A stretch of 64,000 bases of DNA. Source: Alphaproteobacteria bacterium (GTDB taxonomy: Bacteria > Pseudomonadota > Alphaproteobacteria > SP197). The notes beneath the pieces are model-generated. The model was not told the DNA's origin and did no database searches. It saw only the letters and a list, made by a program, of their open reading frames with translations. Each line of letters begins with the position of its first letter. Position 1 is the stretch's first letter. Of the stretch, positions 16,801 to 29,772 are shown in pieces. A program made the translations under genes and the position numbers. Location: assembly GCA_965228895.1 (NCBI GenBank), contig OZ245842.1, positions 5,056,001 to 5,120,000 of the forward strand, read 5' to 3'.

Positions 16801-16915
16801 CGGCGAATCTCGTTGGGTCAGGCCAGGGATCGCACGCCGGCAACCGCCGATTGGGCGGCGCGCGTACCCGTGCTATGTGAGGGCCCGAAACGTGCCGGTC
16901 AAGGGCAGGGGTGCC

Positions 16916-17359
16916 ATGCGGGAATATTGGGTCATGATGCGCGACAAGGTCGATATCGATATCGAGCTGGTGCGCGACGGATTCTCGTGGGGCGCATGCC
17001 TGATCCCGCTGTTCTGGGCGCTTTACCGCAGGCTGTGGCGGGTCTTCTTTATTCTTCTGGCGGTCGTGATCGGCCTCTCTGTCTTGTGGGGGGCTCTTGG
17101 ACTGGGTGAGACCGGCCTGATGGTCGCCAATGTCGCGCAGGCCCTGGTTCTGGGCTTTCTGGGCAACGAATTGCGCCGGTGGGAGCTCGGCCAAAAGGGC
17201 TTCAACACGGTCGATATCGTGGCCGCCAGGCGCTTCGACGAGGCCGAGGAAAAGGCAATTATTCGCTTGGCCGAGCACGAGGCCGAGCACCATGACGCCC
17301 GCGTAGCGGAAAATTCATTCCCTCAGGGGTTGCACCCCCAACCAGACCAGTCCATTTAG
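16916..17359 (+). CDS. DUF2628 family membrane protein
   Basis: VRDGFSWGA...LFWALYRRLW pattern with 2-3 TM helices. Confidence 0.75.
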   Translation: MREYWVMMRDKVDIDIELVRDGFSWGACLIPLFWALYRRLWRVFFILLAVVIGLSVLWGALGLGETGLMVANVAQALVLGFLGNELRRWELGQKGFNTVDIVAARRFDEAEEKAIIRLAEHEAEHHDARVAENSFPQGLHPQPDQSI

Positions 17360-17364
17360 GCGCC

Positions 17365-17904
17365 ATGGAAACTCGTTCCGCGCCGGCCTCTGCGTCCGTC
17401 GAGGTCAAACACGTCACCGAACTCAACCGACTCGATCTAGACGACCTGTGCGATGCCACAGACGCCGCGATCGTAGACGGTAACGGCTTCGGCTGGCTGA
17501 ACCCCCAGCCCCGCGAGCAGATCCAGCGCTACTGGAAAGGTGTGCTGCTGGTGCCCGAGCGCGAGCTTTGGGTCGGCCGGCTGGATGGCACCATCGCCGC
17601 GTCGGCGCAGCTGCAAAAGCCGCCGCGCAACAACGAGGCCCAGGCCCATTCGGCCCAGTTGACGACCCATTTCGTCGCGCCCTGGGCGCGCGGTCACGGG
17701 CTGGCCGCCATGCTGTTGCGCGCAGCCGAGGATTTCGCCCGCGAGATCGGTTTGAGCCACATGCGCCTCGACGTCCGCTCGACCCAGGCCCGCGCGATCG
17801 AGCTCTACGAATCCAACGGCTATGCCCGTTGGGGCGAGCTGCCGTCCTATGCCAAGGTTGGCACCGACTTCGTCACCGGCTTTTTCTACGTCAAGAAGCT
17901 TTAA
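17365..17904 (+). CDS. GNAT family N-acetyltransferase
   Basis: FVAPWARGHGLA acetyl-CoA motif, LDVRSTQ..AI.LY...GY. Confidence 0.9.
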   Translation: METRSAPASASVEVKHVTELNRLDLDDLCDATDAAIVDGNGFGWLNPQPREQIQRYWKGVLLVPERELWVGRLDGTIAASAQLQKPPRNNEAQAHSAQLTTHFVAPWARGHGLAAMLLRAAEDFAREIGLSHMRLDVRSTQARAIELYESNGYARWGELPSYAKVGTDFVTGFFYVKKL

Positions 17905-19331
17905 TTCACCTGCGGGCGCCATAGATAGGCGTCGCGGTAGCGCTGCGGGTTGATGTCGCGCAGCAGACGAATGATCTGCAGACCCTGTTCGTGGGTCAGG
18001 TTGCCGCCATAGTAGACACCGACCCAGCCGTTGTCCGATGGTTCGGTGACGCCTGCCTGGTTGTCGGTGACGGCACTCGCCTGGGCGGCGCACAAGGGTT
18101 CGCCGGCGAGATCCAGGATGGCATCAAGGCGCGCCTTGTTTTCCGGTTCGCTTGCCGCCCGCTTCATGCGCTCGAGATAGGCGCTTGCCTGGTCTTCCTT
18201 CTGGAACGACGCCAGAAAGACCCGGTAATCCGCGTTCTCGAAACGATTGAGCGCGAGCAGGAAGTCGCCGAGCTGGACCTCGTTCCGGCATGCCATCAGA
18301 CCAAGCATGTAGTCTGCAAGCTGCACGGGATTGAAGTACTGGTCGATCTGCACGTAGTAGGTTGGCTCGACCTCGTCGCGGGGATTGCAGAAGTAAACCG
18401 GCAGGAACTTGTTGACGAAAACCTGGTCAAGTGGCGCCGGTTCCTGGTTGGCCTCGATCATGGCCTTCAGATTGGCCCGCGCCGCGCCCATGTCGTCGAG
18501 CAGGATGTTGTTGATCGCCATCAGCATCAGGATGTCGGAGCGGAAACTTGGCAACCGGTCATCGTCGCTTCCATCGATCCGATCGAAGATCGCCTGATAG
18601 ATCTCGTTCGATTGCACGAGCGCACGCTGCGCCTGATCGCTCACGGGCCAGGCCGGCACGCCCGCACCATCGTCGCTGAAGTAGCCGATCATGGATTTTT
18701 CCTGCAGCGCCCGCGCCTTCAAAAACTCCGCGTAGAGAACGAAGCGGCTCTCGGGATAGCTGTCGATGACCAGGTCGGTAATGGCGATCTTGCCATCGAT
18801 GTAGTCGTCGGTGCGGCCGCGCCCATAGAAGGCGTCGTAGAACAGGCCGCGGCTGTTCATAAGCGCACGGTCGACGATCGCGCGGTTGTGGTCGTCGAGA
18901 CGCTCATCGCCAGTCACCAGGCCGTAGAGATAGGCTTGGTCGCCTGTCAGATCGCTCGACACCCAGCCCGGCGGCAGGTTGGCCAGAACCTGGGCGAAAG
19001 CGATCATGCCCTCGACCGTCGGCGCCTGGCGCATGGCCTCGGTCAGCTTCGCAATTCTCTCGCCGACGCAATCGACGTTCAGTCTTGAGCCGCATGTGCC
19101 CGCGGGCGCTTGCTCCGCTGCGTCCCGCAGTTGCGAGCAGGCGGCGTAAATCTCCGCCATCAGACCGGCAAGATCGGCGGCGTAACTCGCCTTGCCCGTG
19201 GCGATATCGTCGATCAGATCGTCGAGATCGCGGTCGATCTCGTCGAGATCACGTTGCTCGATGGCGGCTGACGCCGGAAGCGCCGCCAGGCACATCGCAA
19301 CGGCAAGGAAGGCGCCGACAACGAACTTCAT
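17901..19331 (-). CDS. Secreted hypothetical protein (476 aa): helical/TPR-like region and SPOR-like C-terminus
   Basis: GGAG RBS; signal peptide ending ASA; YPESRFVLYAEFLKARA TPR-like helix; YRVFLASFQKEDQA...GVYYGG...DAYL SPOR-like pattern. Confidence 0.75.
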   Translation of the reverse strand: MKFVVGAFLAVAMCLAALPASAAIEQRDLDEIDRDLDDLIDDIATGKASYAADLAGLMAEIYAACSQLRDAAEQAPAGTCGSRLNVDCVGERIAKLTEAMRQAPTVEGMIAFAQVLANLPPGWVSSDLTGDQAYLYGLVTGDERLDDHNRAIVDRALMNSRGLFYDAFYGRGRTDDYIDGKIAITDLVIDSYPESRFVLYAEFLKARALQEKSMIGYFSDDGAGVPAWPVSDQAQRALVQSNEIYQAIFDRIDGSDDDRLPSFRSDILMLMAINNILLDDMGAARANLKAMIEANQEPAPLDQVFVNKFLPVYFCNPRDEVEPTYYVQIDQYFNPVQLADYMLGLMACRNEVQLGDFLLALNRFENADYRVFLASFQKEDQASAYLERMKRAASEPENKARLDAILDLAGEPLCAAQASAVTDNQAGVTEPSDNGWVGVYYGGNLTHEQGLQIIRLLRDINPQRYRDAYLWRPQVN

Positions 19332-19348
19332 TACTCTCTCCGCACGCC

Positions 19349-20218
19349 TTACTGGAAGGGGTCGCCGCTTTCCTGCGGCATGAACTGTCGGGTGCAACCC
19401 CATTCCATCTGCTGGCGATCCGAAACGATGACCGTCAGATCAGGATGCGCATCGTCGTACTTCACCTCAAGCAATGGTGGGCGCACGTTCGTATCCTGAC
19501 CTTCATGATAGATCACCGCGCCTGAACCGTCGGACAGAATCGGCACCGGCAGCACGTAGGCGCCGGAAACGTTGAACGGCCGGATGATGCCGGAGGGTTC
19601 ATCAAAGTCGTCGCCATGATTGTTTCTGAAATTGATGAAGGTGGGTTCTTCGCTAAAGCCGGTATCGGTAAACTGAAGTTGCGCGCGGATCTGGCTCAGA
19701 TAGACACTTTCCTCGCGGCATAGAAACTTGATGAAGAGCACGCGGCTGTCGCGCTCATCATCGGCCGCGGCCTGTCGCGCACGGAAGTCCGCTTCCAGCT
19801 CTTCGCGGCGAAGCGCGTGGGCCGACTCCAGCTCGGCCATTTCAATTCTGACTTCTTCCTGCACCTTCGCGTCGAAGTTCACCATCTCGTTCAGGTCTTC
19901 GATGGTCATCAGGCCGCCATCGGGACGCAGCACCAGCCATATCAGACCCATGTAGACGGCCGGTGCGCCGCCCAGGGTGATCCATTTCCATTCGATCTTG
20001 CCCGTGCCGCCCAGAATGCCGACAAAGGCGACGGTCAGCGCCGCCATCAAGAAGAGAAACGCAAACAGGCCATTGGGTTTGCTCAAGGTGGCAAACACGA
20101 CAGAGAGAATGATCAGCGTGCCGAAGATCGCCAAAACAAAGGCCAAGAAGAAGACGCCGGAGACTTGGCGGCCGGTTTCGTACGCCGCCGGTTCGGGCGG
20201 TGTTTCATCCGTCGACAT
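19349..20218 (-). CDS. Hypothetical membrane protein (3 TM helices, coiled coil, soluble C-terminal domain)
   Basis: Three hydrophobic segments, charged heptad region EMAELESAHALRREELEADFRARQ; GAGGT RBS overlapping upstream stop. Confidence 0.75.
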   Translation of the reverse strand: MSTDETPPEPAAYETGRQVSGVFFLAFVLAIFGTLIILSVVFATLSKPNGLFAFLFLMAALTVAFVGILGGTGKIEWKWITLGGAPAVYMGLIWLVLRPDGGLMTIEDLNEMVNFDAKVQEEVRIEMAELESAHALRREELEADFRARQAAADDERDSRVLFIKFLCREESVYLSQIRAQLQFTDTGFSEEPTFINFRNNHGDDFDEPSGIIRPFNVSGAYVLPVPILSDGSGAVIYHEGQDTNVRPPLLEVKYDDAHPDLTVIVSDRQQMEWGCTRQFMPQESGDPFQ

Positions 20219-20230
20219 GGCAGTCAGACC

Positions 20231-20560
20231 TCACCAACAGTCACAGGAAAGCCAGCACCCCCACTCGCCGCAGCAATAGTCCCAGCGACAGGACTGCGCG
20301 ATGGTGACCTCGCCATCCGCCGTCCACGCGGACTGTCTGCGTTCGTCGTCAGAGTTGGCCGGGCGGATCAAAACGTCAGGAATGGCAACGCCGGCGTAGG
20401 CCAGGGCCGCCGTCCACGGACGATCGGGTATCACGCCGCACAGGCTGTCGCCGGCTACCGGGTGAACCCCGGGCCGGGCCACATCATCGCCGCCAAAGGA
20501 CGGTGTCGTAAACGCCAAGGCGAGAACAACAACAAGAAAAACGGGAACCCGGGCTAGCAT
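20231..20560 (-). CDS. Secreted prepropeptide-like protein (109 aa) with a C-terminal Cys/Trp-rich core
   Basis: AGGA RBS before ATG 20560; hydrophobic signal peptide; ends IAQ-SCRWDYCCGEWGCWLSCDCW. Confidence 0.7.
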   Translation of the reverse strand: MLARVPVFLVVVLALAFTTPSFGGDDVARPGVHPVAGDSLCGVIPDRPWTAALAYAGVAIPDVLIRPANSDDERRQSAWTADGEVTIAQSCRWDYCCGEWGCWLSCDCW

Positions 20561-20602
20561 GACTTTTCCTATACGGAAACTCAAAGCTCGCTCGACACAA
20601 TG

Positions 20603-20631
20603 AATTTAGTAAATCTGAAATAGACTGTCAA
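20603..20631 (-). promoter_or_regulatory. Sigma70-type promoter for the peptide operon
   Basis: Minus strand TTGACA-17 bp-TAAATT in an AT-rich gap about 40 bp upstream of the ATG. Confidence 0.75.
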
Positions 20632-20665
20632 ATCGCTGGCCAGCCACACGAAATTGAAAAGGTAA

Positions 20666-21214
20666 TCACGGGTCGATTCTACTGTCGGTCTGGCGCCAGC
20701 GCAAGACACCGAACGCGACGAACATCAATCCGACCGCCGCCAGGACGGCGGCGAAGATCACGCGGTCATTGCGGATCTGGCGCAGGCTGTCGATCACGGC
20801 CGTCGCTGACGTGATGTCGACATTGCCGGCGGCAAGACCCCAGATAAGGGTGCGGTTGAAGGCACTCGACGCGCCGGGCCACATCTGCACGGTCACATCG
20901 CCCTCGATCGCCAGCTTGACCTCATCATAGGCCGGCAGGTTCGAGCGATAGAGTACGGGGCGGGAGCCCGGCTCTAAAATGGCGCGGAACTCGACAATCG
21001 GGCTGCCGGAAAACAGCGGTATGCCGCCCGATTGGATATCAATCTCGGCGGACTGCGAGGCCGAGCCGGTCACCGGGACCAACTCGGCCTCATCAGGATA
21101 CTCGGCGAACAGTGGCTCGGAGCCCTGCCAGACACCAAGGACCAGCAGGATCGTGCCCGCCACGATGGGCGCGTGGGGTTTCCAGCCCAGACTGCGCGCA
21201 AACCGTCCGATCAT
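20666..21214 (-). CDS. Hypothetical membrane protein (N- and C-terminal TM helices)
   Basis: Single ORF filling the gap; two hydrophobic segments flank a soluble domain. Confidence 0.6.
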   Translation of the reverse strand: MIGRFARSLGWKPHAPIVAGTILLVLGVWQGSEPLFAEYPDEAELVPVTGSASQSAEIDIQSGGIPLFSGSPIVEFRAILEPGSRPVLYRSNLPAYDEVKLAIEGDVTVQMWPGASSAFNRTLIWGLAAGNVDITSATAVIDSLRQIRNDRVIFAAVLAAVGLMFVAFGVLRWRQTDSRIDP

Positions 21215-28915: not shown

Positions 28916-29714
28916 CAGAAACGTCCCCCTTGGCCGCTGCGTAAGCCCGGCACGCGTCGCCGAACGCGGTGAACAAGGCGTGGTCCGCCGGGCGTTCATG
29001 GAAACGCCATTCGGGATGCCATTGCACGCCCAGCATGAAGCCCGCTGCATCCTTGTGGCTGACCGCCTCGACCTGACCGTCCGGCGCTACCGCCTCGACA
29101 ACCAGGCAATCGGCGACCCGGTCAATGCCTTGGCCGTGGATCGAGTTGACGGTGTAGTGCGTCTCGCCGGTGATCTTGTGCAGCAGGCCGCCCGGTGTCA
29201 CGTCGATCGTGTGGGCCGGCGCGTACTGCTCCTCGCGTGACTTCGTCTCGTCGGCGCGATGATCAAACCGGCCGGGCACTTCTTCGACATGCTGGAACAG
29301 CGTGCCGCCGAGCGCGGCGTTCAGTTCCTGGATGCCGCGGCACACCGCCATCAACGGCATGCCCCGCGCGATCGTGTGGTGGATCAGTTTCAGGGTCAGC
29401 GCGTCACGCTGGGGATCGCGCGCCGTCGTCGGCCGGGGTTCGTGGCCGCCATAGTGATGCGGTTCGACGTTCGAGAGACTGCCGGTCAGAAACACGCCGT
29501 CGAGACGATCAAGCAAGTCGTCGAGATCGACCAGGGCGTCCAACGCATCGAGGTCAGCGCCACCGCCCAACGCCGGGATCATCAGCGGCATGGTGCCGGC
29601 GCCATGGGCGACGGCGTTGATGTACTTCTCGCCGACCGCGTGGAACGGGTGGATGTCGATCTGCTTGACGCAACAGGGAATGCCGACCAGCGGCAGGGGG
29701 AGGTGACGGTTCAT
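28887..29714 (-). CDS. puuD: Gamma-glutamyl-gamma-aminobutyrate hydrolase (peptidase C26)
   Basis: LTGS.SNV.P, CRGIQELN, VNSIHGQG, VQWHPE. Confidence 0.88.
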   Translation of the reverse strand: MNRHLPLPLVGIPCCVKQIDIHPFHAVGEKYINAVAHGAGTMPLMIPALGGGADLDALDALVDLDDLLDRLDGVFLTGSLSNVEPHHYGGHEPRPTTARDPQRDALTLKLIHHTIARGMPLMAVCRGIQELNAALGGTLFQHVEEVPGRFDHRADETKSREEQYAPAHTIDVTPGGLLHKITGETHYTVNSIHGQGIDRVADCLVVEAVAPDGQVEAVSHKDAAGFMLGVQWHPEWRFHERPADHALFTAFGDACRAYAAAKGDVSDDNRRGQVA

Positions 29715-29772
29715 GGCGGAAATGGCTAGCATGGCGCCCTGGGCACGGCAAGCGGGTGCCCTTTAGGGTGAC

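Follow-up and report, generated by a model that had tools for sequence, protein, structure and literature searches.

Three adjoining genes, here called g1, g2 and g3, lie on the minus strand of a 64,000-nucleotide stretch from an alphaproteobacterium (contig OZ245842.1, positions 5,056,001 to 5,120,000; this whole stretch is referred to as the window, and positions below are counted from its first letter). We find that the three are genuine genes under purifying selection, and the evidence supports treating them as one unit. The sequences further support the view that all three products are cell-envelope proteins, and none of them fits a described family or system. Our tentative reading, to which we give a probability of about 0.4, is a periplasmic assembly in which g2 and g3 would be organized around a disulfide-knotted peptide derived from g1. 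Much firmer than any statement about which product binds which is the conclusion that the genes form a real operon and encode three envelope proteins. The start codons used throughout are those conserved in two sister species, and with these starts the genes are as follows.

20560..20231, minus strand: g1, 109 amino acids (P0001), a predicted exported, prepropeptide-like protein
20218..19349, minus strand: g2, 289 amino acids (P0002), a predicted inner-membrane protein
19331..17901, minus strand: g3, 476 amino acids (P0003), a predicted exported protein

A first-pass annotation, made from the letters of the window alone, had described three co-oriented open reading frames (ORFs) with a ribosome-binding site (RBS) before each. 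Both statements hold with the conserved starts. The gaps are 12 bp between g1 and g2 and 17 bp between g2 and g3, and a purine-rich, RBS-like stretch can be read directly before every start (AGGAAAAG for g1, GAGG for g2 and GGAGAGAG for g3). In the sister species the corresponding gaps are 12 and 15 bp in one and 12 and 38 bp in the other.

Co-occurrence was examined in all the genomes of the order covered here, 33 from five genera. The same 3 of the 33 genomes were matched by the g3 profile, by the g2 profile and by a degenerate 24-base pattern representing the g1 core. All three carriers belong to the genus of the window, a marine alphaproteobacterial genus, and hold one copy of each gene; no paralogue of g1, g2 or g3 was found in the window's own genome. 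Because the same order and short gaps are kept in three species, and because presence and absence are identical across the 33 genomes, we consider that the three genes behave as one unit; such co-occurrence is what the first-pass annotation had proposed to test by homology and neighbourhood searches. Pairwise comparisons among the three species gave ratios of nonsynonymous to synonymous substitution rates (dN/dS) of 0.20–0.43 for g1, 0.09–0.23 for g2 and 0.11–0.23 for g3.

Wider searches returned few relatives. In a collection of 5.8 billion proteins we found, besides the proteins themselves, five relatives of g3, three of g2 and two of g1. A g3 relative with 56% identity and a g2 relative with 47% identity share their source, and in each case the contig is 8283 bp long; the two genes are probably neighbours there. 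The full 3 kb is also present, ungapped and with 96 substitutions, on a contig of another public run. The collection of genome contigs yielded one locus, and metagenome contigs yielded none, either by protein scan or by the DNA pattern for the g1 core; there were no matches on viral contigs or plasmids. In 401 genomes of the class, and likewise in 401 of the phylum, the profile of the g3 superfamily matched only this genome. The g2 profile gave only six partial matches in the 401 genomes of the class (E-values of 0.002–0.009), which we take as chance. As far as we searched, the operon is confined to a single genus of Alphaproteobacteria and a small number of metagenomic relatives.

The smallest product, g1, has a single hydrophobic stretch at residues 1–25 (hydropathy over 19 residues) and a Cys- and Trp-rich end, as expected for the prepropeptide-like protein first proposed. 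Its two recognizable parts are the following.

20492..20560, minus strand: putative g1 signal peptide, residues 1–23, with an n-h-c layout read by eye and a predicted cleavage site
20234..20305, minus strand: g1 C-terminal core TIAQSCRWDYCCGEWGCWLSCDCW, 24 residues of which 6 are Cys and 4 are Trp

Across all five known sequences, 21 of the 24 positions of this tail are identical. Between the species, dN is 0.017–0.088 in the last 24 codons of g1 and 0.20–0.74 in the first 85. Synonymous changes are visible in the tail, with a dS of 0.58–1.65 that is well above dN. The DNA of the tail thus varies synonymously while dN stays low, so it is the peptide sequence itself that is kept by selection, and we regard the tail as the likely functional part of g1. 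The tail is acidic (pI 4.05) and its Cys residues are arranged as CC, C-x-C, C-x3-C and C-x4-C. The middle of the protein evolves fast, with a conserved Cys41 and a conserved PWTAAL..AG patch; Cys41 brings the invariant Cys of g1 to the odd count of seven. A GG follows the hydrophobic segment in only three of the five g1 sequences. A six-frame scan of the genome for Cys/Trp-rich sequences also matched a repetitive minus-strand ORF (MRCMRC.../LWCLWC...) outside the window, at about 2889323–2889671 of contig C1 of genome G000. It lies about 1.6 kb downstream of a SPOR-domain match at 2887445–2887687 (plus strand) and probably results from a repeat being read out of frame.

For g2, the three transmembrane (TM) helices, coiled coil and soluble domain that had been described are all recovered, from hydropathy and from a structure predicted by AlphaFold2 (AF2), with confidence given as the predicted local distance difference test (pLDDT).

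19928..20170, minus strand: three predicted TM helices of g2, residues about 17–97 (hydropathy; AF2 helices 21–44, 48–70 and 78–96)
19748..19903, minus strand: predicted long single helix or coiled-coil stalk of g2, residues 106–157 (AF2 pLDDT 72–91)
19376..19741, minus strand: predicted beta-rich C-terminal domain of g2, residues 160–281 (AF2 pLDDT about 70–85), probably periplasmic

The segment from TM2 through the loop to TM3 is near-invariant in the alignment of relatives, even at 47% overall identity. The stalk varies in length by 11 residues, with an 11-residue insertion in the relatives P0011 and P0012, and it matched only generic coiled coils (VIA Z at most 6.9). P0011 (251 amino acids) matches g2 to about residue 200 and is unrelated thereafter, as might result from a frameshift, from an error in the assembly or from decay of the copy. 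In the C-terminal domain, Cys167 and Cys275 are invariant. The domain itself gave weak Ig-like and prealbumin-like matches (Foldseek E-values of at least 0.017), and the homologue P0010 gave Atlas structure matches of the CarboxypepD_reg/SpaA type that are below threshold (TM score at most 0.33). On the cytoplasmic side g2 would have about 19 N-terminal residues and short loops, with no kinase, cyclase or DNA-binding domain; with cytoplasmic parts this small, there is no obvious signalling output.

The largest product, g3, had been described as a secreted protein with a signal peptide, a Cys-containing helical region, TPR-like helices and a SPOR-like end. Its signal peptide, Cys-containing helices and helical repeat stand, while the likeness to SPOR is weakly supported.

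19266..19331, minus strand: putative g3 signal peptide, residues 1–22, ending ASA, with a predicted cleavage site
18432..19247, minus strand: predicted TPR-like helical-repeat region of g3, residues about 29–300, with invariant Cys65, Cys80 and Cys88
17904..18254, minus strand: conserved C-terminal module of g3, residues about 360–476, with a nearly invariant Cys414

In total g3 has six invariant Cys. The AF2 model places helices over residues 29–294, with pLDDT mostly 70–90, as stacked helical hairpins. Compared with TPR and 14-3-3 proteins, the repeat reaches a VIA Z of 8.7–11.3, below the value of about 13 attainable between helical repeats that are not akin, and the best Foldseek E-value is 0.011. 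The structural neighbours therefore appear to reflect a common arrangement rather than kinship. They include periplasmic TPR scaffolds, namely the TPR domain of YbgF (CpoB; Z 8.9), YfgM (Z 9.6) and BamD/YfiO (Foldseek E-value about 0.15), although these have no counterpart of the six invariant Cys or of the C-terminal module of g3. All Atlas matches of g3 are TPR clusters at 0.88–0.90, but shuffled sequences attain this level too.

Searched with a g3 profile, a set of 1.84 billion representatives yielded 25 proteins at an E-value of at most 0.001, including the clade's own, with lengths of 259–554 residues. None of the 24 other proteins of this superfamily has a Pfam family above the cut-off. 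In an alignment of 21 sequences, conservation falls mostly in the C-terminal third (DH(V/I)Y..FL, FFNP.QLA.Y, F.N.DYR, the near-invariant Cys, G.Y.GG.L(T/S)..A and AYL.RP); one g3 relative, P0007, is without the conserved C-terminus. The two commonest weak Pfam matches among the 21 members are TPR_6 and SPOR. TPR_6 was weakly matched in 5 of the 21 (best E-value 0.0025), and no TPR hidden Markov model matched g3 itself.

The C-terminal module was also compared with the SPOR domain (PF05036), for which the Pfam model did not match g3; a six-frame scan of the genome gave 8 SPOR domains, none of them at g3. When the g3 C-terminal alignment was compared with these 8 domains using hhalign, the alignments were collinear, with P-values of 0.003–0.007. 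For controls, two reversed sequences gave P-values of 0.13–0.18 and seven windows of the g3 N-terminal region gave 0.033–0.68. Because the hhalign probability is only 6–10%, we refer to the end of g3 as weakly SPOR-like and not as a SPOR domain. The AF2 model of the module has strands at 369–373, 435–440 and 465–471 and helices at 379–394, 396–408 and 447–460, with a pLDDT of only 22–56; for comparison, a SPOR domain spans about 75 residues and has a four-stranded fold of the type beta-alpha-beta-beta-alpha-beta. The peptidoglycan-binding proteins with SPOR domains include FtsN, DamX, DedD and RlpA. As modelled, the g3 module would share with such proteins a beta-alpha ... beta-alpha-beta layout, collinear half-motifs and a periplasmic location. 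It differs from them in being split by an insert of about 45 residues with a conserved Cys, and glycan binding by g3 is putative.

None of the three genes had been recognized as a named family at the first pass, and the family libraries, the Protein Data Bank (PDB) and the fold searches place none of them either. Pfam, NCBIfam, PADLOC and PHROGs gave nothing usable for g1–g3 and their relatives. The only Pfam match of the three proteins at an E-value of at most 1 was DUF6541 in g2 (0.078); g3 had none at that level. For g1, no family or solved structure was found with Pfam at an E-value of at most 10 (including a search with the last 30 residues), NCBIfam, PADLOC, PHROGs or PDB profiles. The PDB sequence profiles matched g1–g3 only through composition (designed repeats, TM segments of G-protein-coupled receptors, and MalT with an E-value of 0.12). 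Strings of the g1 core motif did not occur in the literature searched, and keyword searches gave no description of such a three-gene set in the portions of text available to them.

Several known systems were compared with the trio, and the matches found do not place it in any of them. An anti-phage defence system has as its sole PADLOC match KwaA in g2 (E-value 0.09), which covers 27 TM residues. The maturation set of the methylamine dehydrogenase small subunit (MauA, MauE and MauD, comprising a small Cys/Trp-rich subunit with membrane and thioredoxin-like helpers) is not indicated by Pfam, where g1–g3 have no match beyond that to DUF6541. Hevein- and knottin-like carbohydrate-binding peptides are, like the g1 tail, short and rich in disulfides, with aromatic and Gly residues after a CC pair, but their Cys spacing beyond the CC is different. 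The 38-position profile of the hevein-like family Chitin_bind_1 (PF00187) had no match at an E-value of at most 10 in g1, in its 30-residue end or anywhere in a six-frame reading of the genome, and a hevein-like peptide was rejected.

Two kinds of small exported peptide come closer in layout. The Sec-dependent class II bacteriocins share with the trio a small exported peptide beside a small multi-TM protein and the lack of a dedicated exporter. They differ in that the host here is Gram-negative with an outer membrane, the core is acidic and invariant, and there is an additional periplasmic protein of 476 amino acids. Class II bacteriocin operons can be told by a double-glycine leader with a C39-peptidase ABC exporter or by a known bacteriocin or immunity family; here no such family was matched, no ABC exporter lies among the neighbours, and the GG is present in only part of the g1 sequences. 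Neither a bufferin partner gene nor one of the DoxX type was seen among the 18 neighbours scanned around g1. An enzyme of the MNIO type (PF05114) was searched for in the whole genome at an E-value of at most 0.001 and among the 18 neighbouring proteins, with no match; the same search had a match in Caulobacter, which served as positive control. In the absence of such an enzyme, and with no bufferin-type Pfam domain in g1, the bufferin or MNIO-dependent RiPP (a peptide that is made ribosomally and then modified post-translationally) was rejected as well. According to the parts of the two papers available to us, bufferins are copper-binding RiPPs that are modified by MNIO enzymes and carry Sec signal peptides (PMC11626156, PMC12452194), and would share with g1 a small, Cys-rich exported precursor, a Sec-type signal peptide and action in the periplasm.

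The region upstream of g1 carries a promoter-like site within a conserved leader.

20631..20603, minus strand: sigma-70-like promoter site TTGACA-17-TAAATT, 10 of 12 matches
20561..20665, minus strand: intergenic leader from the upstream two-TM gene to g1, including the RBS AGGAAAAG, with long invariant runs in three species

The promoter proposed in the first-pass annotation is there and is conserved in the three species, but because one such site was found against 0.8 ± 0.8 in shuffled sequences, its presence is not beyond chance. The site and about 60 bp around it are near-identical in the three species, whose g1 proteins are only 45–74% identical, and between species the first 85 codons of g1 are less conserved than the leader. 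That most of the 105-bp leader is near-identical despite the divergence of g1 argues for a regulatory region that has been kept. Two GATTT(G)AC words, 18 bp apart, overlap the promoter-like site and are possibly an operator. At the other end, the stop codons of g3 (minus strand) and of the convergent GNAT gene (plus strand) overlap in TTAA at 17901–17904, so there is no room for a terminator between the two genes. The count of terminator-like sites, internal ones included, is 4 where 3.5 are expected, so there is no enrichment. No RNA element was found in and around the operon, where the sole Rfam match had an E-value of 0.72.

The surroundings of the trio are conserved. One sister species has the identical order of an aminotransferase, a two-TM protein, g1, g2, g3, GNAT, DUF2628, hslV and hslU. 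In the other (G001, locus L004, 3192–5353), and in that species only, genes of sugar-modification type for a GFO/IDH/MocA oxidoreductase and a DegT/DnrJ/EryC1 aminotransferase lie between g3 and GNAT. In the window, the DUF2628 protein is encoded between hslV and the GNAT gene at 16880–17359 (plus strand), and a 156-amino-acid ORF without a Pfam family lies at 29259–29729 (plus strand). The gene directly upstream of the leader is the following.

20666..21214, minus strand: protein of 182 amino acids with N- and C-terminal hydrophobic segments and no Pfam family

Of 41 related genomes, 22 encode this two-TM protein; within the family it is present in 20 of the 24 other genomes. Among five loci compared from other genera, its gene lies directly downstream of the same class-III aminotransferase gene in four, and g1–g3 are present in none. 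Because the two-TM protein is found without g1–g3, it is not part of the unit, and g1–g3 appear to have been inserted in an ancestor of the genus. The two-TM protein and the class-III aminotransferase form a conserved pair that is independent of g1–g3. The GC content is 0.606 at 18–20 kb of the window and about 0.64 elsewhere, and GC at third codon positions (GC3) is 0.73–0.78 in the operon and 0.81–0.89 in its neighbours. A mobile element was considered and rejected, there being no flanking repeats, no paralogues and no plasmid or viral-contig match. Among the 18 neighbouring proteins scanned (9107–30546) there is no RiPP maturase, dedicated protease or ABC exporter, in agreement with the first impression of the locus; the nearest proteins of the protease or exporter kind are HslUV and a transporter of the MFS type.

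Signal peptides, TM helices and invariant Cys pairs are what place the three products in the envelope. Since the genome encodes DsbB (3 matches) as well as thioredoxins of the DsbA type (6 over the cut-off), disulfides are the best reading of the many invariant Cys. We picture the assembly as follows. The g1 product would be exported by Sec and its putative signal peptide removed, and oxidation of its six tail Cys by the cell's own Dsb proteins would give a compact knot of disulfides. The middle, which evolves fast, may serve as a spacer or pro-region, with Cys41 either free or bridging to a partner. The g2 product would sit in the inner membrane with its N-terminus inside, and its rigid stalk of about 50 residues would lift a disulfide-stapled beta-sandwich domain into the periplasm. 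The g3 product would be a soluble, periplasmic, TPR-like scaffold whose disulfide-stapled C-terminal module may hold it on peptidoglycan. The Trp-rich knot would then be the ligand, with putative docking at the membrane part or the beta domain of g2, at the concave face of g3, or at both; the membrane part of g2 and the scaffold of g3 are the surfaces under strongest constraint in the neighbouring proteins. Such an assembly would stay fixed in the periplasm and would need neither a maturase nor an exporter of its own. Candidate roles are in envelope structure, in glycan or metal binding and in self-protection. In a bolder and rather unlikely form of this picture, the trio would be a new type of maturase-free peptide module in the Gram-negative envelope, whose Cys6/Trp4 knot acts as a "warhead" binding glycans or the membrane interface, presented by the stalked g2 and chaperoned by a peptidoglycan-tethered g3. 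In that form g3 would be the founder of an exported superfamily that joins a TPR-like region to a split SPOR-like module, and the three genes would stand for three new families whose role in the envelope is also new.

Several observations weigh against the proposed assembly. The odd Cys count of g1 fits a purely intramolecular knot poorly. The AF2 models have a middling mean pLDDT of 67.4 for g2 and a mean of 59.5 for g3, in which the C-terminal domain is poorly modelled, and the topology of g2 rests on a weak charge bias and on the Cys argument. SPOR was matched in only 2 of the 21 superfamily members, with E-values of at least 0.15, in keeping with the low hhalign probability. Beyond this clade, among the 24 distant g3 relatives, the trio may not be an obligatory unit. 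The first-pass annotation had proposed a dedicated envelope system, with a signal or toxin peptide, its receptor or immunity protein in the membrane and a partner anchored on peptidoglycan as one example. The proposal is partly supported. The part that stands is one unit of envelope proteins from no named family; the likeness to SPOR proteins is weak, and signal or toxin for g1, receptor or immunity protein for g2 and peptidoglycan binding for g3 are candidate roles.

The small exported Cys-rich peptide beside a small multi-TM protein would also suit a toxin with self-protection, in which g1 would be a Sec-exported, disulfide-stabilized, bacteriocin-like or membrane-active peptide, g2 the immunity protein, and g3 a protein that sequesters or releases g1. 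The narrow and patchy distribution and the lower GC and GC3 suggest acquisition, the invariance of the g1 tail is paralleled in TM2–TM3 of g2, and the Trp-rich tail would suit a membrane interface. However, the tail is acidic and not cationic, and it is invariant and not diversifying, which speaks against a classical antimicrobial peptide. There is also just one copy, its place in the chromosome is fixed, and neither flanking repeats nor plasmid or viral-contig matches were found; none of the 18 neighbours encodes an outer-membrane route, and PADLOC and PHROGs gave no match. We regard a toxin as doubtful. Another use of the tail would be as a buffer that binds soft metals (Cu, Zn, Cd), or as a sacrificial thiol/Trp redox buffer in the periplasm, with g2 and g3 positioning or recycling g1. 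The Cys spacings in an acidic tail and the odd Cys count speak for it, as does the precedent of the Sec-exported, Cys-rich bufferins in the part of PMC11626156 available to us. Against this, the Dsb system of this genome is expected to oxidize Cys in the periplasm, no MNIO enzyme is encoded, g1 has no bufferin-type domain, and the 18 neighbours include no metal-resistance, efflux or regulator gene. Four Trp are also unusual for metallothionein-like sequences, and we find a buffer clearly unlikely.

The prepropeptide-like layout of g1, its invariant mature end and the dedicated membrane protein next to it recall a peptide signal with its receptor, g1 being secreted and g2 acting as the sensor. 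This is highly improbable, as the small cytoplasmic part of g2 has no output domain, no regulator gene is found among the 18 neighbours, and there is no export route beyond the periplasm. It is also very unlikely that the three are hypothetical genes without relation to each other, which share a place but no function. The distant members of the g3 superfamily, whose surroundings may or may not include g1 or g2, leave some room for it. On the other side, the three genes share one pattern of presence and absence across the 33 genomes, keep their order with gaps of 12–38 bp in three species, and encode products that all appear to be located in the envelope; in addition, the g2 and g3 relatives at 47–56% identity are probably on the one 8283-bp contig.

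Because no protein of the trio fits a described family or system, the trio is new by its distance from what is known. Newness is meant in the sense that the trio fits no known family or system, and not that a new mechanism has been demonstrated. Its reach is limited, the trio being known from a single marine genus and a few metagenomic fragments. If it is true that the trio works together, it would comprise three new protein families and represent a self-contained periplasmic use of a disulfide-knotted, Trp-rich peptide without a RiPP enzyme or an exporter. In that case g3 would also provide the first handle on a rare exported superfamily that is unnamed in the databases, with 25 clusters among the 1.84 billion representatives.

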